Shown here: positions 7,369-51,760 of the stretch, in pieces
How positions within the stretch are numbered: position 1 is the stretch's first letter
How the letters are laid out: each line of letters starts with the position of its first letter
Origin: Deltaproteobacteria bacterium
Lineage (GTDB): Bacteria > Myxococcota_A > Polyangia > Fen-1088
Direction: 5' to 3'
NCBI GenBank assembly: GCA_033763315.1
Contig: JANRKS010000035.1
Coordinates: 32,001-96,000 of the forward strand
Length of the DNA stretch: 64,000 nucleotides
Program-made: the position numbers and the translations under genes
The notes under the pieces: generated by a model
Told to the model about the DNA's origin: nothing
The model's input: only the letters and a program-made list of their open reading frames with translations
Databases searched by the model: none

Positions 7369-8157
7369 ATGACCCCACCACGCACGCGTTCGCGAATCTG
7401 GCTGACCCTAGCGGCGCTAGCGTCTTTCACGGTGGGTGCCGCTGTGATCGACAGATGGACGGTGCAGGCGAGCAGCATCGTTCCCAAGTTAACTTGGTTC
7501 GGCCAAGCGTGCTTTTTGATGGAGACGCCTCAGGGCACCCGCGTGTTGATGGATCCCACCTCGACAGCCGCCACGCAACCCTTGCCCGAAAGCATCGCCG
7601 CGGACCTCGTGACAGTGAGTCACGAACACGGGGATCACAACAACATCAAACTGGCCTTCGGCACACCCAAAGTGCTGCGTGGCCTCACGCCCGACAAGAA
7701 GGGGTGGATGAAGATCAACGAGAAATATCGTGATCTCTCTGTGCGCACCATTGGCGTGTACCACGACGATGAGCTTGGGCGCGAGCGCGGGTTGAACTCG
7801 ATCTTTGTCTTCGAGGTGGCGGGCATGCGTATCGCGCATTTGGGGGATTTGGGGCACACCCTCACCGATCGCCAACTTTCTGATCTGGGGCAGGTCGATG
7901 TGGTCCTGGTGCCTGTGGGCGGCACGTTTACGATCGACGCAGAGCGTGCCGCGCGCGTGGTGGATCAGATCCGCCCGCGGCTCATTGTTGTGCCCATGCA
8001 CTACGCCACCAAAGGCAGCACCAACAAAGACCTGGCCTCGGTCGATGCGTTCATCGCAGGCCGCCCTCACGTCCGGCGCGTGGACAGCAATACGTTGGTT
8101 CTCAATGCCATCAAGAAGCGCCCCGGCGCCGAAGTGGTGGTGATGAACTACAATTGA
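7369..8157 (+). CDS. MBL-fold metallo-hydrolase with N-terminal membrane/signal segment
   Basis: WFGQACF, SHEHGDHN, HLGDLGH, VPVGGTFT, PMHY motifs. Confidence 0.88.
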   Translation: MTPPRTRSRIWLTLAALASFTVGAAVIDRWTVQASSIVPKLTWFGQACFLMETPQGTRVLMDPTSTAATQPLPESIAADLVTVSHEHGDHNNIKLAFGTPKVLRGLTPDKKGWMKINEKYRDLSVRTIGVYHDDELGRERGLNSIFVFEVAGMRIAHLGDLGHTLTDRQLSDLGQVDVVLVPVGGTFTIDAERAARVVDQIRPRLIVVPMHYATKGSTNKDLASVDAFIAGRPHVRRVDSNTLVLNAIKKRPGAEVVVMNYN

Positions 8158-8236
8158 GCCGGCCGCGCGCAGCCGGTTTGCGAGCGACGACTTGACGTAC
8201 TGGCGCACAATGCCCAAGCTGGCTGGTTGAGGCCCC

Positions 8237-9049
8237 GTGACCTTCCCCACAATCGACTTCATAACAGCGGCCCGAACCAGAACCTCGGTGGCAGCCGCCT
8301 TGGCCCTGGCTTGCTGCGTGTCAGGCACATTCGCAAACGCTCAGTCAGAAGCGATCTCGTCGACCGCACAGGGTTACCGTTCGCCAAAGCACTGGGCGAT
8401 GGAGCTTCGGATGGGGCCCTACCGCCCTGACATCGACAGTGAGTTTGGTGACGTACCCGAGGCCCAGCGGCCGCACCAACTCTACTTTGGCAACAAACGT
8501 CGCCTGCTCAGCCAAATTGAACTCGACTATCAAATTTGGAACGGTTTCGGCTCCCTCGGCATCGGCGCGCAGGTTGGTTATTTTCGCGAAACCGCCAAAG
8601 CGTTCGTCGCGCCCACTGACGGCAGCGTGCCAAGCGTACGTTCGGGCGATGACACGCGGTTGATGCTTGTGCCCACGTCGTTGTCGCTGGTGTATCGCCT
8701 TGACGTGGCGGCCGTGCGGCTTGGAATTCCGCTTGTGCCCTACGCGAAGGCCGGCATCGATTGGGTGTATTGGTCGGTGGCCAACGGCAACGGCGGTGTG
8801 GCGGCGGACAAATCGACCAACAGCAAAGGCCGAGGCGATGCCACCGGTTATCACGGCGCCGTTGGGTTGTCGCTTCTGCTCGACATCTTTGATCCAGGCG
8901 CTTCGCAAGAATTCGATGCCGAAACAGGCGTGAACCACACGTACCTGTTCTTCGAGCTGGCTCGTTATGAGATCAACGGGCTCGGCTCAAAAGCTCAACC
9001 CCGTTTGGGCGACACAACGTGGTCTGCCGGCTTTATGTTCGAGTTCTAG
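8237..9049 (+). CDS. Outer-membrane beta-barrel protein (MXAN_2562-like)
   Basis: Signal peptide, SP..WAMELRMGPYRPDIDSEF, GVNHTYLFFE, C-terminal aromatic FMFEF Bam signal. Confidence 0.75.
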   Translation: MTFPTIDFITAARTRTSVAAALALACCVSGTFANAQSEAISSTAQGYRSPKHWAMELRMGPYRPDIDSEFGDVPEAQRPHQLYFGNKRRLLSQIELDYQIWNGFGSLGIGAQVGYFRETAKAFVAPTDGSVPSVRSGDDTRLMLVPTSLSLVYRLDVAAVRLGIPLVPYAKAGIDWVYWSVANGNGGVAADKSTNSKGRGDATGYHGAVGLSLLLDIFDPGASQEFDAETGVNHTYLFFELARYEINGLGSKAQPRLGDTTWSAGFMFEF

Positions 9050-9805
9050 ATGGAGGAAAAGCGCGTCCTTCACAGAACGCTTCGCTTGGTGGTGGAGTAC
9101 GATGGGACTGATTTTTGCGGGTGGCAACGGCAAGACAACGGGCGCACCGTTCAACAGACGTTGGAAGAAGCGTTCGAGATCATACTGAAGCATCCTGTGA
9201 CCGTGCGCGGGGCTGGTCGCACGGACGCGGGCGTGCACGCCTACGGGCAAGTCGCGGCGGTTGACATCGACGAGACGATCCCTGCCTATGGTTTCTTGCG
9301 CGGCCTCAACGCCCATTTGCCAGAAGACGTGGCCATCGTTGAGTTGGCCGATGCCACACCGGGGTTCGATCCGCGGCGCGCGGCGCGCGGCAAGATCTAC
9401 CGCTATTCGATCTGGAATCACCCCTTACGCTCGGCGATGAACCGCCGGACCGCGTGGCACGTCAAACCGACGTTAGATCTGGAAAAGATGCACGTAGCCG
9501 CAGCGAAGATCGAAGGCGAACACGATTTCAAAGCGTTTCGCGCCGCCGACTGCGAACGACCGTCCACGCGGCGGCTGATGCGCCGGGTGAGCGTGCGCCG
9601 ACAAGGCGCTCTCATCACGATCGAAGTGGAAGGCACCGCCTTTCTCAAGAACATGGTGCGCATCATCGCTGGCACATTGGTGGGCGCCGGGCTCGGTAAG
9701 ATCGCGGCAGAGCGCATCGATGAGGCGCTGGTCACAGGCGAACGCACTTTGGCGGGCGTCACGGCGCCACCACAGGGGTTAGCCCTTGTTCACGTGCTCT
9801 ATTAG
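9050..9805 (+). CDS. truA: tRNA pseudouridine(38-40) synthase
   Basis: EYDGTDFCGWQRQ, GAGRTDAGVHA, GEHDFKAF, FLKNMVRII, TAPPQGL. Confidence 0.97.
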   Translation: MEEKRVLHRTLRLVVEYDGTDFCGWQRQDNGRTVQQTLEEAFEIILKHPVTVRGAGRTDAGVHAYGQVAAVDIDETIPAYGFLRGLNAHLPEDVAIVELADATPGFDPRRAARGKIYRYSIWNHPLRSAMNRRTAWHVKPTLDLEKMHVAAAKIEGEHDFKAFRAADCERPSTRRLMRRVSVRRQGALITIEVEGTAFLKNMVRIIAGTLVGAGLGKIAAERIDEALVTGERTLAGVTAPPQGLALVHVLY

Positions 9806-10563
9806 ACAGCGAGCTCGGTGACCGCAGCAGGCGACTGGCGCAAAGACGCGTTCCTATCCGGCCCAAGGCGCTTGGCGATTTCGGCATGAACGCGCTCAAG
9901 CACCTCTTCCCGATCGGCGCCTGTGAGTCCTGCGGTGGAAATCGGCGGCGCCAAAACCACCTCGACGCGCCCCGGACGAATGCGCATGGTTTTGGCCGGG
10001 ATGAGATCGAAGGTGCCACGCACCACCACGGGGACGATCGGCACCCCCGCGGTCAACGCGAGGTGAAAGCCGCCCTTTTTGAACTCTTTGAGACGGCCGT
10101 CGCGGGCCCGCGTTCCTTCTGGGAACACCAACACTGACACGCCTTCACGAATGCGGCGCGCGGCTTCGTCAATGCTGCGCCGAGCGGCGTGCGGGTTTTG
10201 ACGATCGATGAACACAAAACGACCACAGCGCAGAGCCCAACCGAAAAACGGAATGGAGCCGAGCTGTTTTTTCGCAATCATCCGCACGCGCATGGGCAGA
10301 ACCGAAAACAAAGCCCAGATGTCCGCTGACGAGACGTGGTTCGACATAAAGACATAGGGCTGGTTCAGATCAAGCTCTTGCTCGACCGTCATGTGAACCT
10401 TCATGCCTGTCACGAAGGCCAAGGTTTTTCCCCAAGCGCGCGCAAGGTCGATCACCTTATCGCCAGATTTATCGATCAGCCGCGCGCCGTACGCCAAGAA
10501 GCAAAAGACGAACGTGCAGACCGCAACAAGGCAAGTGTTAAGAACGCTTCTAATGAACCCCAA
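9802..10563 (-). CDS. plsC: 1-acyl-sn-glycerol-3-phosphate acyltransferase family protein
   Basis: NHxSxxD (SNHVSSAD), FIDR, FPEGTR, FKKGGF motifs. Confidence 0.88.
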   Translation of the reverse strand: MGFIRSVLNTCLVAVCTFVFCFLAYGARLIDKSGDKVIDLARAWGKTLAFVTGMKVHMTVEQELDLNQPYVFMSNHVSSADIWALFSVLPMRVRMIAKKQLGSIPFFGWALRCGRFVFIDRQNPHAARRSIDEAARRIREGVSVLVFPEGTRARDGRLKEFKKGGFHLALTAGVPIVPVVVRGTFDLIPAKTMRIRPGRVEVVLAPPISTAGLTGADREEVLERVHAEIAKRLGPDRNASLRQSPAAVTELAV

Positions 10564-10613
10564 AACGCCGTAATGCTAGCACCTGGGCGTTCCGGGTGAA
10601 GCCGGCAAATGCG

Positions 10614-11888
10614 CTAAAAACGCGGGTTTCGCAGCCGTTTGACGTCCACGCCGTCCAACATGCCGCGGACAGTAACAAGCAGATCTTGTGGCGAAAATGG
10701 CTTGTGCACGAAGGTGTCGTTGTCGCCCATTTCGTTGGGATCAAAAATACGGCTGTCGGAGTAGCCAGACATGAACACCGCGCGCAAACCGGGCTGCCGC
10801 AGCCGCAGACGGTTGACGAGATCGCGCCCGCCGAGCCCGGGCATAACCACGTCGGTCAAGACCAGGTTTACGGTGCCAGCCTGTTGCAGCAATTCGTCCG
10901 CCTCAGCGCCGTTGCGGGCTTCAAGCACCTGGTAACCCTGCTGCAAAAGCAGCCGCTTGGCCAGCTCACGAACCAGGGCTTCATCCTCCACAAGCAGCAC
11001 CGTTTCCGTGCCGATCGGCAGCGATGCAAAGGGTGGTGACAGGGCGCTGGCCTCCGCGCGCGGCGCGCTTTGTTGACCCACAAAATGCTGCTGCAAAAGG
11101 CGCCGCTCGGTTGAATCGATGCCCATGCCGGCGAGCAACGCCGGTCCCTCGCCATCCTTCAACGGAAACTTCAACGTGAAGAAGACACGCGGTCCTTGCG
11201 GCGTGGGCACCACCTCTTCAACAGCTTTGGGCAAGCCCGTGGTGAGGACTTCTAAGTCGCTCGCGCGAATGGGCACTGAAAATTCGAGCGGCCACAAATC
11301 CGCATCCGTTTTGCCGTGCCATTGCCCCGGCGCCAAACCAACCCGCTGCATGAACGCCGGGTTCACGTAAACGAAACGGCCCTCTTCGTCCTTGAGAAAA
11401 GCGATCGCAGGGCTGTTCTTCATGAACGCCTCGAACCGCGCTTCACTGGCTGCAAGCGCGGCCTCTGCGGTTTTGCGGCGGGTGATGTCGATGCAATAAC
11501 CTGTGCATTCGAAAGGCTCGCGCATCGGATCCATATCGGGCAGCAAGCGCACTTCGTTTTGCAACCAGCGGTAAGAGCCATCGCGGTGGCGAATGCGGTA
11601 CTCCCACAAACGGGCGCCTTCGGCGAGCAGACTCACGGCGGCGCGTTCAGGAAGGGCACCGCGATCTTCAGGATGCACGCGTGACAACCAAAAGGAGGCG
11701 TCACCAAGCACCTCGGAAGCCTCGAAGCCCAAAATGCTGCGGACGTTGGGGCTTAGGTATGAAAAGGTCCACAAGCGACCCAACGTGCACGTGTAGACGA
11801 TGGCCGGGTTGTGCTCCAACAAACGGTCGAGCAGTTGGCTGCTTACGCTGCCTCGGCTCCCCGCACCCCACCCTCCGCCCTCAGACAT
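10614..11888 (-). CDS. PAS-PAS-receiver protein (no HisKA/HATPase)
   Basis: PAS1 (VHPEDR...YRIRHRDGSYRW...DITRRK), PAS2 (KDEEGRFVYVN), REC (VLLVEDE...LTDVVMPG...MSGY...KPF). Confidence 0.85.
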   Translation of the reverse strand: MSEGGGWGAGSRGSVSSQLLDRLLEHNPAIVYTCTLGRLWTFSYLSPNVRSILGFEASEVLGDASFWLSRVHPEDRGALPERAAVSLLAEGARLWEYRIRHRDGSYRWLQNEVRLLPDMDPMREPFECTGYCIDITRRKTAEAALAASEARFEAFMKNSPAIAFLKDEEGRFVYVNPAFMQRVGLAPGQWHGKTDADLWPLEFSVPIRASDLEVLTTGLPKAVEEVVPTPQGPRVFFTLKFPLKDGEGPALLAGMGIDSTERRLLQQHFVGQQSAPRAEASALSPPFASLPIGTETVLLVEDEALVRELAKRLLLQQGYQVLEARNGAEADELLQQAGTVNLVLTDVVMPGLGGRDLVNRLRLRQPGLRAVFMSGYSDSRIFDPNEMGDNDTFVHKPFSPQDLLVTVRGMLDGVDVKRLRNPRF

Positions 11889-11891
11889 CGA

Positions 11892-12305
11892 TCACTTGCC
11901 TTTTGTCGCGGGAGCCGCAGCTGTTGAACCGCCATCGTCAAGCTCAACGAGGACACCGTAGATGATGCCCACCAAGGCGCCAAAGACAAACGGGATCTGA
12001 ACCAACGGCAGGCCTTGCACACCCAAAGAAGCGGGCAACGGCGCCGTGACCCGCCCCAAAAGCTTTTGGCCACCAAAGTACAACAGGCTGCTGAGCGCCG
12101 CGCCCACCAGGCCTTTGACCACGGGGGTCCACAATGTCTCTTGCCGCCACAGCGGTTTGCCGCAAACAACGCCCGCCAGAAAACCGATTACGGCGTAAAC
12201 GAGATACCCCATGGCTCCCTGCCCCAGGCCAAGGCGAAACGCGCCGTAGCCTACGCCCGCACCAACGATGCCGCCCTTGAGTAAGCCAGTGATGATTCGG
12301 AACAT
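11892..12305 (-). CDS. Hypothetical multi-pass membrane protein
   Basis: About four hydrophobic Gly-rich helices; fills the gap in a minus-strand run. Confidence 0.7.
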   Translation of the reverse strand: MFRIITGLLKGGIVGAGVGYGAFRLGLGQGAMGYLVYAVIGFLAGVVCGKPLWRQETLWTPVVKGLVGAALSSLLYFGGQKLLGRVTAPLPASLGVQGLPLVQIPFVFGALVGIIYGVLVELDDGGSTAAAPATKGK

Positions 12306-12360
12306 GGGGAACCGAGTATAGCGCCGAAAGCCTGCAGTCGCCTCGCGTCGCTACTAAACG

Positions 12361-13851
12361 TTAAAGCGGCGGCTGGACTGGCGCCGACGCGACGTTCTTC
12401 TCGTCGCCGGCGGATGAGTTGTGCGCGAGTTTGGCGTCCAGGGCATCCAAGGCACGCACCTCACTGGCAATGGCTTCACGATAAGCTTTGGGTCGACCCA
12501 CAGGGTTGTCCCGCATGCCTTTGACCTTCATCGGATCTACGTAGCCACCGTTTAAGGTCAGGCCAAAGTGCAGATGCGGGCCTGTGGACAGCCCCGTGGT
12601 TCCCACATAGCCGATCACCTGCTTTTGTTGAACGCGCGCTCCCGCCACGACGCCCTTGGCGAATTTGCTGAGATGATAATACCGCGACTGGTATCCGCTC
12701 TCGTGACGTATCACCACCGTATTGCCCGAGCCGCGCTTCATCGACGCTTCAACCACTTTGCCATTCGCTGCGGCCCAAACGGGTGTGCCGGTGGGAGCCG
12801 CATAATCGATGCCCAGGTGAGCACGCGTCATGTGCAACACGGGGTGAAACCGCTTCAGATCGAATTTCGAGCTCACGCGAACGTAGCGCAGCGGGGTCTT
12901 GAGAAAGCTTTTTGCAATGGCCTGGCCCTTTTCATCAAAATAACCTTCGCGTTTTCCCTCCACGTACCGAAAGGCTCTAAAGCGACCCACTTTGCCGCCG
13001 TATTCGGCCGCCAGAACGTGCCCGTAACCCTGAAAGCGCCCTTCAAGATAGCGCTTCTCGATCACGACCTTCCAGTGATCGCCCGGGTGTTGGTCGGTAT
13101 AGAAGTTGATGTCCCAGGCGAACAAATCCACCAGCATGGCGACCAATGCGGGTGACTCGCCCGCGTTCTGAACAGAGCCGTACAGCGAAGAGTCGATGCG
13201 GCCCACAACATTCTCGACACGCAATTCGACCGGCTTTTCATGCTTCGATGCCACCCATGTGCCATCCGCTTGCCGAGACACAACCACCGTGACGACTTGG
13301 CTGGGTCGATACTCCATGCGTTCGGGTTGGCCGGATTCATCAAACGCCAGAACATATTTGTGGCCTGGCCAAATCGTTTTTGGATCTACGATTTTCGCCA
13401 GCGCCGCCGAGACAGTGAGCGCGACGTCACCAAAGCCTTCGCGTGCCAACACCGTGCTCAGGGAATCTTGTTTGCCAAACTCACCCTCGATCACGCGGCT
13501 TTGGTTGTCGCCCGCGGCAATGGCGCCGGCGGCGGCTTCTTTGCGCTCGGTGCCCGGGGTGGCGGCCAATTCACCCGCGTGGCTTAGATCTGCCAACCGT
13601 TCGGCTTTTTGGTCTACCAAAGACTGGCTGAGCGAGGTGGGCGCGACCGCGACGTCAGGTTTGCCTTTGCGAAAGTAAAAGACATAGACGTTAACAGCCG
13701 TAAGCCCCACGAGCAGCAGGACCAGCCGCGTAGATCCCCGCGACGCCAAGGGGCGACGACGGCGCTTTGCAGGAATGGGTGAGGCAGCCACGCCCCCAAG
13801 ACGAGCACGCAAGCGAACCGACGTCAACTTAGGGCGACGAGGCGAACGCAT
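12361..13851 (-). CDS. M23 family peptidoglycan DD-endopeptidase (MepM/Csd3-like)
   Basis: TM anchor, HLGIDYAAPTGTPV (HxxxD), YYHLS, GLSTGPHLHF (HxH). Confidence 0.9.
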   Translation of the reverse strand: MRSPRRPKLTSVRLRARLGGVAASPIPAKRRRRPLASRGSTRLVLLLVGLTAVNVYVFYFRKGKPDVAVAPTSLSQSLVDQKAERLADLSHAGELAATPGTERKEAAAGAIAAGDNQSRVIEGEFGKQDSLSTVLAREGFGDVALTVSAALAKIVDPKTIWPGHKYVLAFDESGQPERMEYRPSQVVTVVVSRQADGTWVASKHEKPVELRVENVVGRIDSSLYGSVQNAGESPALVAMLVDLFAWDINFYTDQHPGDHWKVVIEKRYLEGRFQGYGHVLAAEYGGKVGRFRAFRYVEGKREGYFDEKGQAIAKSFLKTPLRYVRVSSKFDLKRFHPVLHMTRAHLGIDYAAPTGTPVWAAANGKVVEASMKRGSGNTVVIRHESGYQSRYYHLSKFAKGVVAGARVQQKQVIGYVGTTGLSTGPHLHFGLTLNGGYVDPMKVKGMRDNPVGRPKAYREAIASEVRALDALDAKLAHNSSAGDEKNVASAPVQPPL

Positions 13852-13887
13852 GACCAAGCCAACGATGTGTAAGTGGGGTAACAAAGC

Positions 13888-15585
13888 CTACGCGCGGCGA
13901 CGCCCCTTGAGCTTTTCGCCTCGCGCGCGCCGCAACATCTGGCGTGCGTGCTCAGCCGCTTCGGGGGTGGGCTCAACACCGCCCAGCATGCGCGCCATTT
14001 CCTCCTCGCGCTCCGCTTCGTTCAACACGCGCACTTCGGCCACCGTGCGGCCATCGTGGACATGCTTTTCAACCTTGAGGTGCCGATCAGCGAAGGCAGC
14101 AATCTGGGCCAAATGCGTGACGGCAAACACCTGCCGCTTCGTTGCGATAGACCGGATCTTGAGACCGATGACCTCAGCCACCGCGCCGCCAACGCCGGAA
14201 TCCACCTCATCGAACACATACGTGGAGGTTTGATCGGCCTGGGCCAAAGCTTGTTTGACTGCCAACATGATGCGCGACAATTCACCGCCCGAAGCAATTT
14301 TTGCAAGCGGTCGCGGCGGCTCCCCTGCGTTCGGCGCAAACTGGAACGTCACACGATCGCGGCCCGTAGGGCCAAGGCCGTCACTGCCCCGATCTTCAAC
14401 CTCAACCGCCACACGCGCACCCTTGAGGCCAAGCTCCGAAAGCGTGGCGTCGATGGATTTGCTTAGGCTTCGCGACGCTTGCCGACGTCGCGCCGCGAGC
14501 TCCTGCGCCAGAACGTTCGCGCGATCCCGTGCCACGCCCAAGGCTTGGCGTCGTTCAGATAAAGAATCTTCGTAGCTGCCAAGCTCCGCCAAGGCCTTGG
14601 TCAGCTGATCGCGGTTCGCAATGGCCGTCTCAAGCGAGCCGCCATGTTTCCGCGTGAGCCTGCCGATCAAATAGAGCCGCTCTTCAATCTGCTCCAGCCG
14701 TTGTGGATCGAAGCGAACCGTCGAAGCGTAGCGACCCAGATCGCGGGCCACATCTTCGACCAACGCTTGCGCTTCAGCCAAACGTTCTGCAGAGGCGCCG
14801 AAATCAGCATCCAAACGGGCCAGAGCCTCGAGTTCGCGCACCACACCACCAATTAAGCCCACCGCCGCCACCTCAGCCGAATACAACACCTGTTCGCCAC
14901 GAGCAGCGGCAGCCAAGAATTTCTCCGCGCCTTTTACGCGTTCACGTTCGAGCCGCAGCGATTCATCTTCGCCGGGAACGAGGTTGGCTTCTTCAAGCTC
15001 ACGCACTTGAAAGCGCAAGAAATCTTCGCGCTCAGCCCGCGTGCGCGCATCGGCCTCGAACGCGGCCACCTCAGCGGCGGCCTTCGATAAGTGAGCATGC
15101 GCCTCAGCCATTTGATCGAGAAGATCGTGATTGTCGGCGTAGCTATCGACGATGGCCATTTGGCTTTCGGGATCCATCAACGACTGCTGATCGTGCTGTG
15201 ACGTAATGTCGATCAGGCTGCCCACCACTTGCGACAATTCACCCGCGGTGGCCAATCCGCCCCCGAGGTAGACGCGCCCCTTGCCCGTCTTCGACAAAAT
15301 TCGACGCACGAGAAGGCCGTCATCGACCTGCCGGCCTTGCGCCGCCAGAGCCTCTAGACGGGAATCGCCCTGCCGCAGCGAAAACACGGCCTCGACCTGT
15401 GCCTCGTTGCTGCCCGACCGCACAAGCTCGGTTCGCGCGCGCCCCCCTCGCAGCAAACCAAGCGCATCGACCAAAATGCTTTTGCCTGCACCGGTTTCGC
15501 CGGTGATGACGGTGAAGCCTGGCCCCAACGACAATTCGAGCTCATCAATGAGGGCCAACCCTGAGACGCGGAGAAATGAAAGCAT
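13888..15585 (-). CDS. recN: DNA repair protein RecN
   Basis: MLSFLRVSGLALID, Walker A TGETGAGKS, ASGGELSR, FDEVDSG, VTHLAQIA; start ATG 15585. Confidence 0.96.
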   Translation of the reverse strand: MLSFLRVSGLALIDELELSLGPGFTVITGETGAGKSILVDALGLLRGGRARTELVRSGSNEAQVEAVFSLRQGDSRLEALAAQGRQVDDGLLVRRILSKTGKGRVYLGGGLATAGELSQVVGSLIDITSQHDQQSLMDPESQMAIVDSYADNHDLLDQMAEAHAHLSKAAAEVAAFEADARTRAEREDFLRFQVRELEEANLVPGEDESLRLERERVKGAEKFLAAAARGEQVLYSAEVAAVGLIGGVVRELEALARLDADFGASAERLAEAQALVEDVARDLGRYASTVRFDPQRLEQIEERLYLIGRLTRKHGGSLETAIANRDQLTKALAELGSYEDSLSERRQALGVARDRANVLAQELAARRRQASRSLSKSIDATLSELGLKGARVAVEVEDRGSDGLGPTGRDRVTFQFAPNAGEPPRPLAKIASGGELSRIMLAVKQALAQADQTSTYVFDEVDSGVGGAVAEVIGLKIRSIATKRQVFAVTHLAQIAAFADRHLKVEKHVHDGRTVAEVRVLNEAEREEEMARMLGGVEPTPEAAEHARQMLRRARGEKLKGRRRA

Positions 15586-44567: not shown

Positions 44568-44582
44568 GCGCGCAAATCGAAG

Positions 44583-45089: not shown

Positions 45090-45099
45090 GCTCTTTCCC

Positions 45100-45636
45100 T
45101 TAGGCTTCGCCGGCCACGCCTGGGCTGGTGTTTACCGCTGGTAGTGCGATGCCAGATTCACTGGCAACGGCAGGCGGCTCGGGCAATGGACCTGGATCGA
45201 CGTTGTGTGCCTTAAGCGCGGCCAAGTAATGATCGCGTTCAAGCTGTGCCCGCACCAAGCGCGCACGCATCACATCGTTGTTCTTCTTGAGGCGATCGAT
45301 TTCGGCAATGTCGCGCATCCGCGTGGCGTCCATCTTGGAAGCGCGCGAGAAGGCTTTGATGAAATCAGCCATGTCCAAATCGTTGACCGGCGTGGCCTTG
45401 TAATGGCCCAATTCAACCTTCTCGATGGCGCCTTCTGCGGCCAATCCCAGGAGCGATCGCACCACCTGAACTTCAGCCGCGCCGATGGACAAAGCCACAT
45501 CAACGGGGGTGAACACAGCGCCAGTCTCTGCCCGCCTTTTCAGATCGTCAAACAAACGCTGACGATCAACCTTCGACCCTACTTCACCGCTCCCCAAAGA
45601 TGATCCCTTGGTTCCCGAGCCGCGTTTCATGCTCAT
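45100..45636 (-). CDS. Hypothetical protein, possible winged-helix plus coiled coil
   Basis: FTPVDVALSIG...VVRSLLGLAAEGAIEKVELGHY resembles a wHTH; EIDRLKKNNDVMRARL coiled coil; GGAGG RBS. Confidence 0.6.
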   Translation of the reverse strand: MSMKRGSGTKGSSLGSGEVGSKVDRQRLFDDLKRRAETGAVFTPVDVALSIGAAEVQVVRSLLGLAAEGAIEKVELGHYKATPVNDLDMADFIKAFSRASKMDATRMRDIAEIDRLKKNNDVMRARLVRAQLERDHYLAALKAHNVDPGPLPEPPAVASESGIALPAVNTSPGVAGEA

Positions 45637-45757
45637 GTGGCCTACCTCCCGTGGTCATTGGTTATACCAGGGGGATGGCAATGGCGGGCAGGAAGTTGTC
45701 GGCCGCTTGCGCGGGCATCGCGGGGGCGGCGCCCGAAGCGGTGATATAAAGCTGCAG

Positions 45758-48700
45758 GTGAGCTCGAACCTGCTACACGGCGAAGGGGCGCCTGAAACAG
45801 CGACGGAAAAGGGGGAGTTGCCCCGCGCGATCGGCGCGGCGTGGCCGCCTTTGCCGGGAGCCATCCTGCTTGATCGGTACCAACTGCAATCGGTGATCGG
45901 CGAGGGCGGGTGCGGAATGGTTTTCCGCGCCAAGGATACCCTCCTTGATCGCGAAGTTGCGGTCAAAACCACGCTGGAAACAAGCGATGCGGCGTGGCGC
46001 GAGTTTGATCGTGAGATTCGCTTGCTTGCACGGCTGCCACACCCGGCCATCGTCCAGTTGCTGGATCATGGGAGGGTGCCCTTGGGCGGCCCGGTTTTGG
46101 TGATGGAGTTGCTTTTCGGCCATACCTTGCGCGAAGAGCTGCAAAAAGGCGCCATGGCCGCGTCGCAAGCCTGCCGACTCGTTGCGCGTGTTCTTGGAGC
46201 GCTGGCGTTTGCGCACGATCTGGGCATCGTTCATCGTGACCTCAAGCCTTCGAACGTTTTCTTGGTGCAGGGCAGCGCGCATAATGCAACCTTGCTCGAT
46301 TTCGGCGTGGCCCACGAGAGAACGGGCTGGCAGCAGCCCTCGCGAAGCGGCGTGGGAACCCCGCTTTATATGGCGCCTGAACAAGCAAGTGGTGACGTCG
46401 ACATCGATGGACGTGCGGACGTGTTCGCCGCGGGATGTTTGTTGGTTGAATGCATTACGGGGCGCCCCCTGTTTCAGGGTCTGGGGCTTGCGCCCTTTGC
46501 AAAAGCAATGCTTTCCGAACGCGTGGTGACCGAAAGCGCTCTTGCACGGGTTCCTCCCCACCTCAGGAGCCTCGCCCACAGGATGTTGGCTAGCCGTCGA
46601 GACGAACGCCCCAGCAACGCCGCAGCGCTCGCGGCACAGTTGTTGAGCATCGCCGACGAACTCTCGGACGCACCCGTGGCCGACGTAGGCACATGGGTAG
46701 GTCCTCGCGAGGCCCGCTCGCTCGCCATTTTGCTTGTGCGCCTCCCCGGGCGGTTGGCACCTCGGCCGCGGATCGAGGACATGCAAGACGTCGTTGCACC
46801 ATGGGGAGGCACCATCTATGCCTTGCCGGGGGACGTGCTGCTGGGCACGTTCGGCGTCGCAGGCAATGCTGTGGATCAAACCACCCGTGCGGCCAACGCA
46901 GCGTTGGCACTGCGCGCGGTCTTGCCACACGCATCGATGGCGCTCAGTCTTGCCCGCGCCACCGTCGAACATCACGAACTCGTGGGGCCGGCGATTGATG
47001 AAAGTGTGCGTCTCCTCGAAGGCGCTGCTGTGGACGATGATGCAAGTGCCATCGAACTTGATGACAATGCCGCGGCCTTGCTGGCGGATCCTTTTGTTGT
47101 TGACCAACGCCAAGGCGGGGCGAAACCAACGTTTCGCTTGCTTCGAAAAGCAAGCAACCGCGGGACGTCACGCACGGTGTTGGGCAAAGCGGTTCCATTC
47201 GTGGGAAGGGAGCGTGAGCTTGCGTTGATCACGGCAAGCATCACCAAATCCTGGCAGCAGGAGCAGGCACACGTTGCGCTCATCACCGCTCCCGCCGGGG
47301 GCGGCAAATCGCGTCTGATGCGTGAGGTTGTGGATCAAGTTTCCAAGGCCAACCGTCCGGTGCTTGTATTGTCGGGTCACGCCGATGACCTTCGATCGGG
47401 CGCGCCCTACGGCCTCATCACATCTGCACTCGCATCCGCCACAGAGATCACAGCCGAAGACACCCCGCCCGCGAGACAACGTAAGTTGAACATGTTTGTT
47501 GGATCTGTGGCGCAAACAAACGCTGCGAGCGACGAATTCACGTCACGCGTTGCCTCTGTGCTCGGCGAACTTTTAGGCGCCCGGTTTCCTGACCACGTTT
47601 CAACCCAGCTGCGCGCCATTCGGCAAGAGCCACGGCTGCTGGCAGATCAGGTCCACTTGGCGTGGATCGATTTGTTAGCGGCCGCCTCCACAAAACACGC
47701 GCTGATTCTTGTCGCTGAGGATCTGCATTGGGGCGATGCACCTAGCCTTCATCTTTTAGAATCATCAGTTCGTACACACGCCGATCGAGCGCTGTTTGTG
47801 TTGGCGACGGCTCGTCCCGAAGTCGAACAGCGGTTTCCGGATCTGTGGTCAAAGCTTTCGCGGGTCACACGCTTCGCAGTGCCCCAGCTCGACCAGGCCG
47901 CCTGTGTGAAATTGGCCTCGGGCGTGTTTCCCGCGATGCCCGAGGAACAAGTGCAATTGCTGGCCGATCGCTGTCAGGGGAATCCCTTCTTTCTTGAAGA
48001 GCTCCTGCGCGCCGCGGCCTCACAAACCATGACGGACGCCCCTGCACCACGCACCATCTTGGCGGCGCTGCAAGCCCGCTTGGATGCGGTTGGCGAAGAT
48101 GGTAAACAAGTGCTGCGCGCGGCCAGCGTGTTCGGCGAACGTTTTCGCAAAGCGGCCGTAGAGGCCCTTCTTGATCCTCGGTTGCGCATAGACGTGCCAA
48201 CGTGGCTTGAGCTTTTGGAAGCGCGCGAAATCTTGATGCGTGAAAACGAACAGCGAGAACGTTGGGCTTTCCGGCACGCTTTGGTCCGCGACGCGGCGTA
48301 TGACGCCTTGACAGACATCGATCGCAGAACCGCCCACCAAGGTGCCGCGGTGGTTTTGCAGGATCTGGGTGAACAAGACGCCGGCGTGATCGCCGAGCAT
48401 TGGGAACGCGGTGGGAAACGCGAGAACGCGGGCAACCATTGGCGCATCGCTGCGGAGCAAGCGCTTGCCGCGCACGACGTCACAAACGCTTTGCAAAAGT
48501 GCGATCGTGCGGATGCCGCCGGCCTGACAAACAGCGCTCGAGGGCTTGTTCTGATTACCCGCGCCAAGATCGCCGACTGGAAAGGACAGTGGTTGGATGT
48601 TGAACAAGCGGCCGCACAGGCGTTGGACCTGGTTGATGAAGAAGCTTGCATCGAAGCGTTGTGTGAGCGGCTGATCGCGCTGGGGCAGCTAGCGCGCTGG

Positions 48701-49708
48701 GATGAACTTAAGTTGAGGTATGCAGAACTGCGTGCGCGACGAACCACACCTCCCACGCGGAAGTGGATGATTGCCGCGCTTCGTTCACTCGGATCGTTGA
48801 CCTTTTCTGGCGACGACCAGCTGGTGCGAGAGCTGTTGCTTGAGTTATTTGCTTTGAGTTCAAGCGAAGACAAGATGCTCAACGGCCTTTGGTGGTCGCT
48901 TCATTCGTTGCTGGCGATGCCCCTTCCCGAGGTCGGCATCGACAAGGTGACGGGAACCACGCGGGCTGTGCAAGCGTTGTTGGCGGCCGGCGATTTAAAC
49001 AACGCCTGTATCAACCTCAACAACTTGACTACCTTTTTGCTGGAAGCCGGGCGGGCAACCGAGGCCGAACAAAAAGCCAACGAACTGCTCGCGCTTTGCC
49101 GCCGGGTTGAGCATCGCTTTATACTTCCGTTTGCCCACCTAAACCTGGCGCAGGCGCTTTTGTCGCAGGGACGTCAAGACGCGGCGCGGCCACACGCGGA
49201 AGAAGCCGCTGAGCTTGGCAGGATCCAAGGCGATCCGCGAATTGAAAGTTTCGCCCGCTTCCTCATCGCTCAAGCGGCGATGGAAAAAGGCGATGTGGTT
49301 GGCGCGGAGGACTACGCACGCGCAGCGTTGGAGCTCGCGCAAGGTGTTGCGGACGTTTCAGTGTTGGCGCGGGCGGTCCTTCTGCGCGTGCTGATGCCCG
49401 AACATCCCGAGCTCGGTCAATTGTGCACTGAGGTCAGAGCGTATTTGCAGACCAGCCCCGTGCCACCCACGTGCCCTTGGTTCATATGGGTTTCGCTGAT
49501 GGATGGTCTAAAGAAAATTGGCCAACAAGATGCGTTGACCAAGCTTATGAATACGGCGCTTGAAGAACTTGATCGCTGGCTAAAAATGTTACCCAGCGCC
49601 GAACACCGACGCTGGGCTCTGGATGGTTCTCCTGACATCGGGCAGCTGGTTCGCTTGGGCCGCGAACTCCAAGCGCCGACCTCCATTGAACAAGCCTGGC
49701 CTAGATGA
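45758..49708 (+). CDS. Ser/Thr protein kinase - degenerate cyclase-like - STAND (AAA_16-type) NTPase - TPR protein
   Basis: IGEGGCG, VAVK, HRDLKPSN, DFG, GTPLYMAPEQ; FVGRERE, Walker A APAGGGKS, Walker B AEDLHW, GNPFFLEEL, FRHALVRDAAY; helical repeats. Start uncertain (ORF open from 45608). Confidence 0.9.
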   Translation: MSSNLLHGEGAPETATEKGELPRAIGAAWPPLPGAILLDRYQLQSVIGEGGCGMVFRAKDTLLDREVAVKTTLETSDAAWREFDREIRLLARLPHPAIVQLLDHGRVPLGGPVLVMELLFGHTLREELQKGAMAASQACRLVARVLGALAFAHDLGIVHRDLKPSNVFLVQGSAHNATLLDFGVAHERTGWQQPSRSGVGTPLYMAPEQASGDVDIDGRADVFAAGCLLVECITGRPLFQGLGLAPFAKAMLSERVVTESALARVPPHLRSLAHRMLASRRDERPSNAAALAAQLLSIADELSDAPVADVGTWVGPREARSLAILLVRLPGRLAPRPRIEDMQDVVAPWGGTIYALPGDVLLGTFGVAGNAVDQTTRAANAALALRAVLPHASMALSLARATVEHHELVGPAIDESVRLLEGAAVDDDASAIELDDNAAALLADPFVVDQRQGGAKPTFRLLRKASNRGTSRTVLGKAVPFVGRERELALITASITKSWQQEQAHVALITAPAGGGKSRLMREVVDQVSKANRPVLVLSGHADDLRSGAPYGLITSALASATEITAEDTPPARQRKLNMFVGSVAQTNAASDEFTSRVASVLGELLGARFPDHVSTQLRAIRQEPRLLADQVHLAWIDLLAAASTKHALILVAEDLHWGDAPSLHLLESSVRTHADRALFVLATARPEVEQRFPDLWSKLSRVTRFAVPQLDQAACVKLASGVFPAMPEEQVQLLADRCQGNPFFLEELLRAAASQTMTDAPAPRTILAALQARLDAVGEDGKQVLRAASVFGERFRKAAVEALLDPRLRIDVPTWLELLEAREILMRENEQRERWAFRHALVRDAAYDALTDIDRRTAHQGAAVVLQDLGEQDAGVIAEHWERGGKRENAGNHWRIAAEQALAAHDVTNALQKCDRADAAGLTNSARGLVLITRAKIADWKGQWLDVEQAAAQALDLVDEEACIEALCERLIALGQLARWDELKLRYAELRARRTTPPTRKWMIAALRSLGSLTFSGDDQLVRELLLELFALSSSEDKMLNGLWWSLHSLLAMPLPEVGIDKVTGTTRAVQALLAAGDLNNACINLNNLTTFLLEAGRATEAEQKANELLALCRRVEHRFILPFAHLNLAQALLSQGRQDAARPHAEEAAELGRIQGDPRIESFARFLIAQAAMEKGDVVGAEDYARAALELAQGVADVSVLARAVLLRVLMPEHPELGQLCTEVRAYLQTSPVPPTCPWFIWVSLMDGLKKIGQQDALTKLMNTALEELDRWLKMLPSAEHRRWALDGSPDIGQLVRLGRELQAPTSIEQAWPR

Positions 49709-50048
49709 GCCCGCGGCTGTGGTTGTACTTGAATCCACCTGCCTTCACGCCGCTCTTCACGAGCACGCGGTTGTGGTTGTAGCGGAATCCGCCGGCCTTA
49801 ACGCCGCTCTTCACGAGCACGCGGTTGTGGTTTACCTTGAACCCACCTGCCTTGACGCCGCTCCTCACGAGCACGCGGTTGTGGTTGGTTCGGAACCCGC
49901 CAGCCTTCACCCCGCTCTTCACGAGCACGCGGTTGTGGTTGGTTCGGAACCCACCTGCCTTCACCCCGCTCTTCACGAGCACGCGGTTGTGGTTGATCTT
50001 GAAACCGCCAGCTTTAAGGCCCGACTTGGTACGGATGACGCTCTTCAT
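49701..50048 (-). CDS. 115-aa cationic protein of six 18-aa KSGVKAGGFxxNHNRVLV repeats
   Basis: AAGGAAG RBS, ATG 50048; repeat units differ mainly at synonymous third positions in this frame. Confidence 0.85.
   Translation of the reverse strand: MKSVIRTKSGLKAGGFKINHNRVLVKSGVKAGGFRTNHNRVLVKSGVKAGGFRTNHNRVLVRSGVKAGGFKVNHNRVLVKSGVKAGGFRYNHNRVLVKSGVKAGGFKYNHSRGLI
49704..50027. repeat. Six tandem 54-bp coding repeats
   Basis: Near-invariant core ccgctcttcacgagcacgcggttgtggtt recurring every 54 bp. Confidence 0.92.
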
Positions 50049-50115
50049 GGTTTTCTTCCTTTGGTTGAGTTCCCGGTTGTGAACGACAGGACCAATTCCC
50101 GTCGAGGTTGCCTAC

Positions 50116-50131
50116 TTCACAACGCATGCCA
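50116..50131 (-). promoter_or_regulatory. sigma54-type promoter of the repeat-protein gene
   Basis: TGGCATG-CGTT-GTGAA, 68 bp upstream of the ATG, next to a divergent activator gene. Confidence 0.55.
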
Positions 50132-50212
50132 ACCCACCACAGTCCCGTAAACCATTGTAATGATTACACATTAGGAGAATCCTCCGGCGCCAATCCGTCC
50201 TGCTCTTCGCCC

Positions 50213-50252
50213 AGCCCCGGTGGGAGCCCCGGTCCAGCCCCACACGAGCCCC
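50213..50252. promoter_or_regulatory. Phased AGCCCC direct repeats, candidate activator binding sites
   Basis: AGCCCC at 50213, 50225, 50236 and 50247 (spacing 12, 11, 11). Confidence 0.45.
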
Positions 50253-50308
50253 ACCGGGGTTGAGCACTCATTGTGATTGCCGTTCCCGCAGCTATCTTTG
50301 CCCGTCGC

Positions 50309-51760
50309 ATGAGTTCGATTGCTGATGCCTCCGCACACTTGACCGTCACGGCGAACCAACCCACGGCAGTGGGCTCGCCAGATGCACGTTCGCCCACGCA
50401 GGCGAAGCCGTTTCTCATTGTCATCGGTGATGCAGCACGACGGGGGGAGCCCCCTCCCCCAGCCAGCAGACTAATACCTATCGGGGACCTTCTCCCCATC
50501 GGCCGCGCGGTCAAGGGAAACGGTTGGACCCTTTCCCACCGCCGCGCCTCTTCCAGGCATGCGGTGATTCGTAAGGAAGCCACCGGCTACGTCGTTTCCG
50601 ACACCGCCAGCACCAACGGCAGCTTCAAGAATGGCCACCTCGTGGAGGCCGACGCGCCTTTGTCGAATGGCGATTTGCTGTTCTTTGGTGGACACGCCGC
50701 CGTGTTTCGCCTGCTCACCCCCGAAGACGCCGAAGACATTGGGCACGGTTTGCAATCGCCGTTTACGCAGGTGGCATCCGCCAGTCTGGCGGTGGCCCGG
50801 TTAGAAGCAAAGCTGCGCGTTCTTGCGCCCACATCCAGCGAGGTTCTGCTGGTGGGCGAAACGGGTGTGGGCAAGGAAGTGTATGCCGCCGCGATCCACG
50901 CCGCCAGTGGCCGCAAAGGCGCCTTTGTGCCGGTCAACTGCGCCGCCATCCCGCGGGATCTCGTTGAAAGCGAGTTGTTTGGCTACGCCAAAGGCGCGCA
51001 TTCGCAAGCCATTCAACCCAAAGCAGGCTTGGTTGATGCAGCGGTGGGCGGCACCTTGTTTCTCGACGAATTGGGGGACATGCCACACAGCGCACAAGCC
51101 AAGTTGCTTCGCTTTTTGCAAACGCGTGAAGTGATGCCGCTCGGTGCCACGCGCGCCAAACAGCTTGACGTCCGCGTCGTGGCCGCAACCAGCCGCATGG
51201 AGCCCGAAGCGGATTCACCTGGCTTACGTGCGGACTTGGTGGGGCGAATGGGCGCCGCCGCCATCACTTTGCCTGCCCTGCGCGAACGGCGTGAAGACAT
51301 AGGCGCGTTCATTGATCACCAAGTCGCCGCAAGCCGGACAACGGATACGCCGTTTGAGATCGATCCGTCTTTGTTCTTCGCGCTCTGCCTTTACCGCTGG
51401 CCGCGCAACATCCGGGAGCTTACGAACGTGGTTCACACAGCCACCCTCTTTGCGGGTGTCGCCACGACGATGACGTTCAGGCACGTGCCAGAGTCGCTGC
51501 TCACCATTCTTGATCCGCAAACAAGCTCGGCCGAACCGCCCAGAAAAGCGGACGGCGACACTTCACGTCGCCCCGCCAACACCCGCCGACCGCCTCGCGA
51601 ACTGCCAACGCGGGCAGAGCTGGAACGAGAACTCTCCACTCACCAAGGCAACGTAATGAGGGTGGCGCGCGCGCTTGATCGGCACCCCAAAGTGATCCGC
51701 CGCGCCTTGCAGCAGCACCAGATCGAGGCCAATGCCTTTCGAGTTCCAAAGCGCCCCTAA
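50309..51760 (+). CDS. FHA-domain sigma54-type enhancer-binding protein
   Basis: FHA (IGR...SSRHA...DTASTNG), GETGVGKE, VNCAAI, ESELFG, LFLDELG, WPRNIREL, Fis-type HTH; GAFTGA replaced by GAHSQA. Confidence 0.9.
   Translation: MSSIADASAHLTVTANQPTAVGSPDARSPTQAKPFLIVIGDAARRGEPPPPASRLIPIGDLLPIGRAVKGNGWTLSHRRASSRHAVIRKEATGYVVSDTASTNGSFKNGHLVEADAPLSNGDLLFFGGHAAVFRLLTPEDAEDIGHGLQSPFTQVASASLAVARLEAKLRVLAPTSSEVLLVGETGVGKEVYAAAIHAASGRKGAFVPVNCAAIPRDLVESELFGYAKGAHSQAIQPKAGLVDAAVGGTLFLDELGDMPHSAQAKLLRFLQTREVMPLGATRAKQLDVRVVAATSRMEPEADSPGLRADLVGRMGAAAITLPALRERREDIGAFIDHQVAASRTTDTPFEIDPSLFFALCLYRWPRNIRELTNVVHTATLFAGVATTMTFRHVPESLLTILDPQTSSAEPPRKADGDTSRRPANTRRPPRELPTRAELERELSTHQGNVMRVARALDRHPKVIRRALQQHQIEANAFRVPKRP

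Follow-up and report, generated by a model that had tools for sequence, protein, structure and literature searches.

What joins a large serine/threonine (Ser/Thr) protein kinase, a very small tandem-repeat peptide and a transcriptional activator whose genes lie side by side in a genome of the Polyangia? The question is raised by positions 45608 to 51760 of a stretch of 64,000 nucleotides (positions 32,001 to 96,000 of contig JANRKS010000035.1, assembly GCA_033763315.1), which as a whole is referred to as the window. An earlier note on this DNA had taken the three genes for one signalling module, in which a ligand-activated kinase would act through the activator on the peptide gene. We give an even chance to the view that these genes make up one copy of a conserved regulatory cassette, with a small and highly basic tandem-repeat peptide as its output, and our belief is just as evenly divided on the peptide being kinase-controlled, sigma-54-driven and probably exported and cut at Gly-Gly. 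In two phyla, a genetic coupling ties the peptide to a Ser/Thr kinase that has a TPR-type sensor; in Polyangia-like lineages its gene carries a -24/-12 promoter, and in this genome it stands head-to-head with an FHA-AAA+ activator. The recurrence of the peptide–kinase pairing in soil bacteria points to an undescribed peptide signalling or secretion system. Literature searches, confined to text outside supplementary files and subscription papers, returned no account of the motif in the peptide, nor of a cassette of this kind.

The cassette and its copies

The kinase gene (45608..49708, plus strand) is an open reading frame (ORF) in which Pfam recognizes a Hanks-type Ser/Thr kinase, a STAND NTPase (AAA_16) and a C-terminal helical/TPR sensor. 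Convergent with it is the gene (49701..50048, minus strand) of a 115-residue peptide, P0001, which reads as six 18-residue KAGG...NHN units. Divergent from the peptide gene is that of the activator P0003 (50273..51760, plus strand), with FHA and AAA+ (sigma-54 interaction) domains and an HTH-like C-terminus. All the features described in the earlier note were found where it had placed them or within a few bases, and the 8-bp tail-to-tail overlap of kinase and peptide genes that it reported can be read directly, the stop codon of the kinase being TGA 49706-49708 and that of the peptide lying at 49701-49703. Such an overlap leaves no space for a terminator, so that transcription of the peptide gene would run antisense into the 3' end of the kinase gene.

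The trio of kinase, peptide and FHA activator is present in three copies in this genome, namely in the window (contig C35), on contig C21 and on contig C32. On C21 (locus L007), an FHA-sigma54 activator (7997..9718, minus strand), a six-unit peptide of 134 residues, P0091 (9754..10158, plus strand), and a 1364-residue kinase-AAA_16-TPR protein (10164..14258, minus strand) follow one another in the order and orientation of the window, with a gap of 5 bp between peptide and kinase genes as against the overlap of 8 bp. On the activator's side of this copy, 1.7-9 kb from the peptide gene, were found a TPR_12 protein, an HlyD adaptor and a 910-residue C39-peptidase ABC transporter, the last at a distance of 6.5 kb. 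On C32 (L116, 6527-17152), the peptide is a single unit of 24 residues, MKIKSKSGVRAGGLTSSNHNRTLL (10794-10868), placed between a 1348-residue kinase-STAND protein and an FHA activator, and a second kinase-STAND gene follows. This short peptide parses as MKIKSKSGVRAGG followed by LTSSNHNRTLL, and resembles a 13-residue leader ending in GG with an 11-residue core.

The full set also occurs in a cultured host, Sorangium sp. So ce1000 (L058). Its kinase-AAA_16 protein has 1336 residues and its FHA-sigma54 activator, which includes HTH_8, has 469; encoded together with them are a peptide of seven units and a TPR protein, and a textbook sigma-54 site, TGGCACGGTCGCTGCA, lies about 80 nucleotides (nt) upstream of the peptide gene. 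Judged by this recurrence, three times here and once in Sorangium, the three genes form a unit, as had been proposed, and the trio is not a chance neighbourhood.

It may be added that in a genome of the same genus (G001; L026 and L027) an orthologue of the C21 peptide retains both the promoter and the upstream repeats, and is flanked by an ECF-sigma/CarboxypepD_reg fusion and by genes without a family name. That genome also has, about 24 kb away, a kinase-STAND fragment of 875 residues and the short remnant of a peptide, which contains a stop.

The peptide and its family

In P0001, an N-terminus of 7 residues is followed by six units of K/R-S-G-V-K-A-G-G-F-x-x-N-H-N-R-V-L-V. The protein has about 25 Lys and Arg residues, no acidic residue and no Cys, and no hydrophobic signal or signal peptide was found in it. 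Beneath it, Tandem Repeats Finder reported a DNA repeat at 49707..49995 (54-bp period, 5.4 copies, 87% matches). A Shine-Dalgarno-like AAGGAAG (50055..50061, minus strand) stands 7-13 nt 5' of the ATG. No Pfam or NCBIfam model, bacteriocin leader models included, matched P0001.

A chance ORF was considered and rejected. In the six units, the codons of S-G-V-K-A-G-G show synonymous differences only (TCG/AGC, GGC/GGG, GTG/GTC/GTT, GCT/GCA/GCC, GGC/GGT and GGT/GGG/GGA), except for an L in place of V in unit 1, and the amino acid changes concentrate at two positions after G-G-F and in the last unit. Because the motif codons vary synonymously only, and because the family is large, the peptide gene is real and, by its codon pattern, evidently under selection at the protein level.

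A word-indexed search with the peptide gave 87 relatives at E<=0.01. A profile of 26 members retrieved 2201 cluster representatives at E<=1e-3; of these, 478 reach E<=1e-10 and 5 reach E<=1e-30, and the best 150 of the 2201 are, with few exceptions, 62-240 residues long. A degenerate DNA pattern for two consecutive units, which requires an AAG Lys codon and so favours GC-rich genomes and misses single-unit genes, marked 73 stretches among species-representative genomes. Peptide ORFs, 82 in number, were legible in 70 of these stretches (none in L066, L092 and L101), and the 70 were taken as the survey loci. By record title, 25 are from Myxococcota (Polyangia, Sorangium, Labilithrix, Nannocystales), which agrees with a mention in the earlier note of similar peptides in myxobacteria; 8 are from 'uncultured proteobacterium', 35 from Acidobacteriota, and the remaining two from a Singulisphaera and an Acidimicrobiia metagenome-assembled genome (MAG).

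The consensus drawn from 315 units of 83 peptides is G-L-K-V-K/R-S/T-x-V-K-A-G-G-x(3-4)-N-H-N-Q/R/E-T/S-x. KAGG is exact in 278 of the 315 units, NHN in 281, and the spacer has 3-4 residues in 285, shares that are partly built in, the units having been picked by a motif regular expression that allowed variants. A peptide has 2 to 13 units, whose length varies by inserts of 3-9 residues; units are near-identical within one protein and differ between proteins mainly right after the GG. With P0001 as query, the peptide was found in 9 of 24 genomes of the window's taxonomic family and in 10 of 41 related genomes, that of the window included, and the profile found more. The family is frequent in several orders of Acidobacteriota; among the nearest clusters of the ESM Atlas, Myxococcota is the commonest phylum.

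Genes beside the peptide

The neighbourhood of the 70 loci was surveyed in 8-kb blocks, which are cut regardless of gene, and all counts are lower bounds. A kinase-domain gene is present in 34 of the 70 blocks, in 22 of them as the gene nearest to the peptide, and a kinase or kinase-like TPR gene in 43. When 20000 random 8-kb blocks of the window's genome (106 kinase and 51 enhancer-binding-protein places) were drawn, 11.6% contained a kinase. Kinases are enriched about four-fold beside the peptide even against this kinase-rich background, an association that the earlier note had foreseen. At L060, L064, L070, L077 and L111, a kinase is paired with a peptide gene of its own.

A crude Kyte-Doolittle hydropathy scan revealed a hydrophobic helix right after the kinase domain in 30 of 38 neighbours labelled as kinases, and the TPR domain of these would therefore lie outside the cytoplasm. 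The STAND kinase, named earlier as the partner, holds for the window, its paralogues and Sorangium, which share this cytoplasmic variant, but most relatives have membrane receptor kinases with an outward TPR domain. In 20-kb loci of relatives, Pfam searches on 10 neighbours gave Pkinase with TPR (4), Pkinase with FGE-sulfatase (1), DUF5916 with CBM9 (2) and a radical-SAM protein of 1031 residues (1).

Besides kinases, a cytoplasmic TPR_12 protein of about 370 residues is the nearest gene at 17 of the 70 loci, usually 13-14 bp downstream of the peptide. Other partners in the blocks are C39 ABC transporters (6), HlyD adaptors (6), other ABC transporters (11) and DUF5916 proteins with CBM9 (7). 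The model of the earlier note, sound as to recurrence and the link to a kinase, thus omits a C39 ABC exporter with HlyD, a stand-alone TPR protein and DUF5916. ECF sigma factors (PF07638; TIGR02999 above cut-off) were found at 15 of the 35 Acidobacteriota loci and at none elsewhere, and next to the window kinase none is present. As partners, FHA activators are thus confined to certain lineages, and in Acidobacteriota it is an ECF sigma factor that serves as regulator.

Some single neighbourhoods may be noted. One Acidobacteriia MAG contributes ten loci (L046, L052, L053, L060, L064, L085, L094, L102, L106 and L111) with at least 13 peptide genes, a large paralogue expansion in which most of the peptides have a receptor kinase of their own as neighbour, frequently with an ECF sigma factor as well. 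Partner kinases of two relatives (L030, L038) have an N-terminal zf-HC2 anti-sigma-type zinc finger, which suggests a fusion of kinase and anti-sigma factor. A 408-residue protein of the Fic/DOC family is encoded near the peptide gene at L068, L088 and L113. At L031 (9526-13506), a member of 10 units of 20 residues, P0092, lies directly downstream of the 1031-residue radical-SAM protein, the sole tailoring-type neighbour seen.

The kinase and the activator

Counted from the first TTG (45608, a putative start), the kinase protein, P0002, has 1366 residues; position 45758, at which the earlier note began, is in frame at codon 51 (V). Pfam places Pkinase (PF00069) at residues 91-343 (E 6e-41), AAA_16 at 530-731 (E 4e-17; 63.6 bits vs a cut-off of 32.6) and, as a weak match, TPR_12 at 1137-1203 (30.9 bits vs 30.1). 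Hanks kinases are known by the catalytic Lys and by the motifs HRD, DFG and APE. The corresponding K120, HRD 209-211, DFG 231-233 and P257/E258 are invariant among five homologues, paralogues and orthologues taken together. Likewise, the Walker A of the STAND module, G564-S568 (G564-G566-K567-S568), and the block D705-L-H-W-G-D710 are invariant in five homologues. The protein is poorly conserved beyond about residue 950, and its sensor part is the least conserved among the paralogues. No membrane helix was predicted in P0002 by the hydropathy scan, which places the protein in the cytoplasm.

The best NCBIfam match of P0002 is TIGR03903 (TOMM system kinase/cyclase fusion). With 255.9 bits against a curated equivalog cut-off of 705.75, membership of this family was rejected. 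An amyloid-signalling motif shared with the STAND N-terminus was rejected as well; by eye, P0002 has no KAGG/NHN-like stretch. Upstream of the kinase gene, the minus strand of the window (43584-45636) encodes a 327-residue protein in which FHA occurs twice, a phosphoglycerate-mutase-like protein (His_Phos_1) and, as a 178-residue ORF, a product of no family; the paralogous locus lacks these genes.

FHA domains are specific for phosphothreonine, which is bound by an Arg, a Ser-x-x-His and an Asn-Gly. In the FHA domain of P0003 (PF00498, 42.4 bits vs a cut-off of 20.7), G-R, S-S-R-H and T-N-G are legible in residues 76-118. The AAA+ domain matches Sigma54_activat (PF00158, 166.4 bits, E 6e-49) and AAA_lid_14 (48 bits), with GETGVGK as Walker A. 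The C-terminus is HTH-like by eye and gave no match to Pfam HTH_8, which the Sorangium orthologue has. When the FHA domain of P0003 was used as query, five FHA enhancer-binding proteins were detected in this genome, and all five have a Ser/Thr kinase within 6 kb.

Promoter and upstream repeats

The consensus of sigma-54 promoters is TGGCAC-N5-TTGC, with GG at -24 and GC at -12. On the minus strand, 83 nt upstream of the ATG of the peptide gene, is a -24/-12-like site, TGGCATgcgttGTGA (50131..50117), followed by AGTAG. Its -24 GG and its spacing (TGGCAT-N5-GTGA) suit the promoter type that the earlier note had placed at 50116-50131, but the dinucleotide at -12 is GA, not GC. The C21 paralogue has TGGCACgaaggTTGAAGTAG (TGGCAC-N5-TTGA), 91 nt upstream of its peptide gene. 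Related loci mostly have GGCACG-N4-CTGC, 51-81 nt upstream of the peptide, and Sorangium and 17 other loci share the form GGCAC(G/A)-N4-(C/T/G)TGC.

When the region 40-140 nt upstream of the peptide start was searched for GGYAY-N5-NTGM, a site was found at 12 of 25 Myxococcota and 7 of 8 unclassified-proteobacterial loci (19 of 33) and at none of the 35 Acidobacteriota loci; by our own estimate, about 0.03 sites per upstream region would be expected by chance. The window's genome has rpoN. A genome-wide scan for the variant TGGC-N7-TGAAGT gave 56 matches, mostly in coding-like contexts, and was uninformative. Upstream of the exporter and TPR genes of the paralogue, there was no TGGCA-type -24/-12 site and one loose GG-N10 match, GGTTCCCCGAGCGC. 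Among sequencing runs, one DNA run shared a small part of the sequence words and no RNA run was listed.

Between the peptide and activator genes, at 50209..50265, are an inverted repeat, GCCCAGCCCCGGTGGG / CCCACCGGGGTTGAGC, and two direct repeats, AGCCCCGGT. Their distance upstream of the -24 element, 80-135 bp, is that expected of a binding site for an activator, for which they are a candidate. The upstream repeats of the C21 paralogue are different, with three copies of GTTGGGACTCG and an inverted arm about 80-145 bp upstream of its -24 element. A layout like that of the trio was also seen on contig C1 (142123-145861) around an unrelated 63-residue ORF, with an FHA activator, the divergent small ORF and a convergent kinase. 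Its promoter-like site, TGGCCCggcttTTGAAGTGAG, has the TTGAAGT -12 region in common with the window and C21 copies.

Probable export and cleavage at Gly-Gly

The sequences suggest that the peptide is probably exported and cut at Gly-Gly. KAGG offers a nearly constant Gly-Gly in the units, and variation within and between peptides concentrates right after it. Peptide and exporter genes stand in operon-like orders at several loci: peptide-peptide-TPR-HlyD-C39-ABC at L080, peptide-HlyD-C39-ABC at L083, peptide-peptide-ABC-C39-ABC at L105 and peptide-...-HlyD-C39-ABC-ABC-peptide at L074. Active C39 peptidases are marked by a Q...C...H triad context. The C39 domains are very alike across both phyla, and the context of Gln, Cys (MDCGPA) and His (THFVV) is kept. 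An orthologue of the exporter's C39 domain is present in 16 of the 41 related genomes, that is, in 8 of the 10 that are peptide-positive with P0001 and in 8 of the 31 others; when 5 of these latter 8 were rechecked with the family profile, 3 were found to carry the peptide.

A possible circuit

In the circuit that we envisage, a ligand would switch on the STAND/TPR kinase, which would phosphorylate itself or a partner on Thr. The FHA domain of the activator would read the phosphothreonine mark, and its AAA+ domain would open the sigma-54 promoter, whereupon the peptide would be made. The signal-less peptide would be passed to a dedicated C39-peptidase ABC exporter with HlyD, encoded here beside the paralogous cassette, and, cut after Gly-Gly, would yield several short units, each x3-4-NHN-R/Q/E-xx in form, with the next spacer attached or not. 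Each unit of an array would consist of a core and the leader-like spacer that follows it, so that one precursor would hold several copies. Cassette identity may reside in the 2-4 variable residues that follow the GG, and the conserved KAGG and NHN may be sites of processing and recognition. The least certain step is the closing one, in which the peptide, released or unexported, would be the ligand of the kinase's TPR sensor and cause autoinduction.

Sensing of the peptide by the TPR domain is plausible. The pairing of kinases with their own peptides and the sensor being the least conserved part among paralogues fit a signal-receptor pair, neither being proof. Co-folding of P0002 residues 900-1366 (5-row alignment) with the peptide (26-row alignment), run without controls, gave no answer (score 0.00), and nothing is drawn from it. 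Carried to its end, this line of thought yields a peptide system by which diderm soil bacteria (Myxococcota, Acidobacteriota) would signal from cell to cell or discriminate kin, a system native to them. The tandem precursor, which has no leader, would be exported and cut at each Gly-Gly by the C39 ABC exporter into many copies of a short NHN peptide, and the residues after the GG would form a 'pherotype' code, read by the TPR domain of the cognate Hanks kinase and relayed to an ECF sigma factor or FHA-sigma54 activator in an autoinduction loop. We hold this larger proposal to be tentative and rather doubtful.

To our knowledge, few ligands have been identified for Hanks receptor kinases of bacteria or for STAND/TPR sensors, and the cassette supplies a genetically linked candidate ligand for hundreds of Hanks/TPR kinases. 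If the peptide is a signal, peptide quorum sensing or kin recognition would be opened to study in two dominant soil phyla, with a direct handle on Ser/Thr phosphorylation that reaches sigma-54- and ECF-dependent transcription. Even if it is a bacteriocin or a matrix subunit, the peptide family and its dedicated exporter are new targets for annotation.

Several observations weigh against a kinase-controlled, sigma-54-driven and exported peptide. With regard to the promoter, the -12 element of the window reads GTGA, not TTGC, and the L1 loop of P0003, the element that contacts sigma-54 through the motif GAFTGA, reads GAHSQA. The FHA-AAA+ activator of the earlier note is confirmed in these domains and in its divergent position and departs from the standard in this loop; sigma-54 dependence of the window copy is therefore not secure. 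GAHSQA or GAHSTA is found in all five FHA-sigma54 activators of the genome (window and contigs C1, C2, C21 and C32), and GAHSTA also in activators near the peptide in two relatives (L028, L034); other enhancer-binding proteins of the genome have GAFTGA-like loops. Since the variant is common to all five and to two relatives, it is a property of a clade and not a defect of one gene. The C32 copy has no -24 GG, and a 148-residue ORF on the opposite strand intervenes between peptide and activator, so that this copy may be decaying. In G001, the peptide orthologue keeps its promoter without a homologue of activator or kinase detectable within about 10 kb (tblastn with P0002 and P0003).

Other observations of this kind concern the partners. 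The earlier note had expected peptide homologues beside FHA activators too; enhancer-binding proteins occur in 4 of 70 blocks vs roughly 6% expected, which is no enrichment. C39 ABC transporters and HlyD adaptors are each in just 6 of the 70 short, arbitrarily cut blocks; no exporter is present in the 64-kb window, the sole full C39-ABC of the genome being that on contig C21. A double-glycine leader is an N-terminal amphipathic helix with hydrophobic residues at -4, -7, -12 and -15. The residues before the GG here (V-K-S-x-V-K-A-G-G) alternate in a beta-strand-like manner, with Lys at -4, and do not appear to fit such a helical leader. The sensor is predicted to be cytoplasmic in the window and periplasmic in most relatives; with a cytoplasmic kinase, the peptide must either come back after export or act prior to it. 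When the phylum is sampled evenly, the family is rare (4 of 401 genomes, the window's included). Finally, the survey loci are not independent, 10 of the 70 coming from one Acidobacteriia MAG and some possibly duplicating genomes of the relatives set, and P values are not given for this reason.

Other roles for the peptide

An unlikely alternative, and the strongest of those weighed, is that the peptide is a cationic bacteriocin or antimicrobial peptide exported by the C39-ABC/HlyD pair. The kinase, ECF sigma factor or FHA activator would then merely regulate its production, the peptide would not be a kinase ligand, and the adjacent cytoplasmic TPR protein would be a chaperone or immunity factor, in a scheme of regulation known from class II bacteriocin loci. 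A strongly basic character (median net charge per residue +0.155; no acidic residue in P0001), exporter and adaptor genes in peptide operons, and a large paralogue expansion, with ten loci in one MAG, speak for it. The exporter's best NCBIfam match is the NHLP bacteriocin export subunit, far below cut-off (168.7 vs 853 bits). Against a weapon speak the lack of any recognisable immunity gene that recurs, a single-unit core of just 11 residues, and the pairing of each of five kinases with its own peptide, which suits signal and receptor better than the regulation of a weapon.

We consider it quite improbable that the peptide stays in the cell as a substrate or modulator of the kinase, either phosphorylated on the Ser/Thr of each unit or bound by the TPR domain as a pseudo-substrate or scaffold that tunes the kinase. 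Such a role would accord with the Ser/Thr before x-V-K-A-G-G in 300 of the 315 regex-selected units, preceded by Lys/Arg in 293, with the missing signal peptide, and with the cytoplasmic location of the window kinase and the stand-alone TPR proteins in a window that has no exporter. It is opposed by the 30 of 38 partner kinases that put the TPR domain outside the cytoplasm and by the exporter genes in peptide operons; moreover, all six units of the window have Ser and not the Thr that an FHA domain requires.

A secreted structural protein is less probable again. Here the units would stack into a beta-solenoid or amyloid-like fibre (cf. curli, Fap), with ladders of Asn and His and turns of Gly, as matrix or surface material under control of the kinase. 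AlphaFold2 (26-row alignment; pLDDT 58.3, pTM 0.45) gave an all-beta model in which strands of 5 and 7 residues alternate once per unit, the ESM Atlas model (pLDDT 0.58) comes nearest to structures of the beta-helix or solenoid type (haemagglutinin repeat, autotransporter passenger, FapA), and DUF5916/CBM9 neighbours occur at 7 of the 70 loci. Both models are of low confidence, however, and we make no claim about the fold for that reason; members of one or two units and 24-50 residues exist, the 3-9-residue inserts change the length of the unit, and the high density of like charge disfavours stacking.

A multi-core precursor of a RiPP (a peptide made by ribosomes and modified after translation), with tailoring enzymes encoded elsewhere, is scarcely credible: the repeated core-like units resemble such precursors, one 10-unit peptide (L031) adjoins a radical-SAM protein and the kinase resembles TIGR03903 below its cut-off, but that is the one radical-SAM neighbour in all loci examined, Cys occurs in just 18 of 83 peptides, and no tailoring family recurs among the labelled neighbours or the 81 otherwise unlabelled near ones, in which the sole families seen more than twice are sigma-70 region 4 (5) and Fic (3).

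Comparison with known systems

Set beside known systems, the proposed kinase-controlled, exported peptide has parallels in several. Peptide pheromone circuits are textbook matter in Firmicutes. We know of none built on Hanks kinases in Gram-negative bacteria, and the one literature search bearing on the point turned up none. Nearest in overall build are the double-glycine pheromone and bacteriocin cassettes of Firmicutes (ComC/ComAB/ComDE and Blp; cf. PMC7595303, abstract). Like these, the present loci combine a small unmodified peptide with Gly-Gly as the likely cleavage site, an exporter of the C39-peptidase ABC type together with its accessory protein, and a linked sensor kinase and regulator. 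They differ in that a Hanks Ser/Thr kinase with TPR (STAND in the window) stands in the place of the histidine kinase, and an FHA-sigma54 activator or ECF sigma factor in that of the response regulator. Their precursor, moreover, repeats the GG in each unit of a tandem array and has no helical leader of the classical kind, and the hosts are diderm Myxococcota and Acidobacteriota, in which cleavage and sensing are putative.

ECF43 sigma factors are paired with Hanks receptor kinases, as in PknS/EcfK of Xanthomonas and PknT/EcfP of Vibrio (accessible parts of PMC13147305 and PMC7826278). The Acidobacteriota loci are alike in this pairing, an ECF sigma factor there being the neighbour of a receptor kinase that crosses the membrane once and whose sensor is extracytoplasmic. 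No peptide partner or ligand is named in those parts of PMC13147305 and PMC7826278. The window differs, too, in that an FHA activator takes the place of the ECF sigma factor.

In Myxococcus xanthus, enhancer-binding proteins with an FHA domain were reportedly proposed by Jelsbak, Givskov and Kaiser in 2005 to link Ser/Thr kinases to sigma-54 promoters. Of their FHA-AAA+-HTH architecture, P0003 shares the FHA and AAA+ domains and is HTH-like at its C-terminus; here, however, kinase and target gene are adjacent, and the L1 loop is GAHSQA or GAHSTA (five proteins in the genome and two in relatives).

The RRNPP receptors (Rap, Rgg, NprR, PlcR, PrgX) are TPR-HTH or phosphatase proteins of Firmicutes that need import by Opp. 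Their cytoplasmic TPR sensor and short, genetically linked, self-made peptide may provide the best analogy, without evidence of homology, for the STAND-TPR kinase of the window, though they have no kinase, STAND module or sigma-54. Members of TIGR03903 sit in bacteriocin-like clusters. P0002 is like them in being a protein of about 1350 residues with an N-terminal kinase followed by further regions, but it scores well short of the cut-off, and neither a cyclodehydratase nor a TOMM precursor lies near the window kinase. In multi-copy pheromone precursors such as yeast alpha-factor, near-identical short units likewise stand in tandem between conserved processing spacers; that precursor is processed in a eukaryotic secretory pathway, and the likeness is one of analogy only. 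By these comparisons, the cassette would be built like a double-glycine system of peptide, exporter and sensor kinase, and what appears to be new in it is the Hanks/TPR kinase, the FHA-sigma54 or ECF output, the tandem precursor and the diderm hosts.

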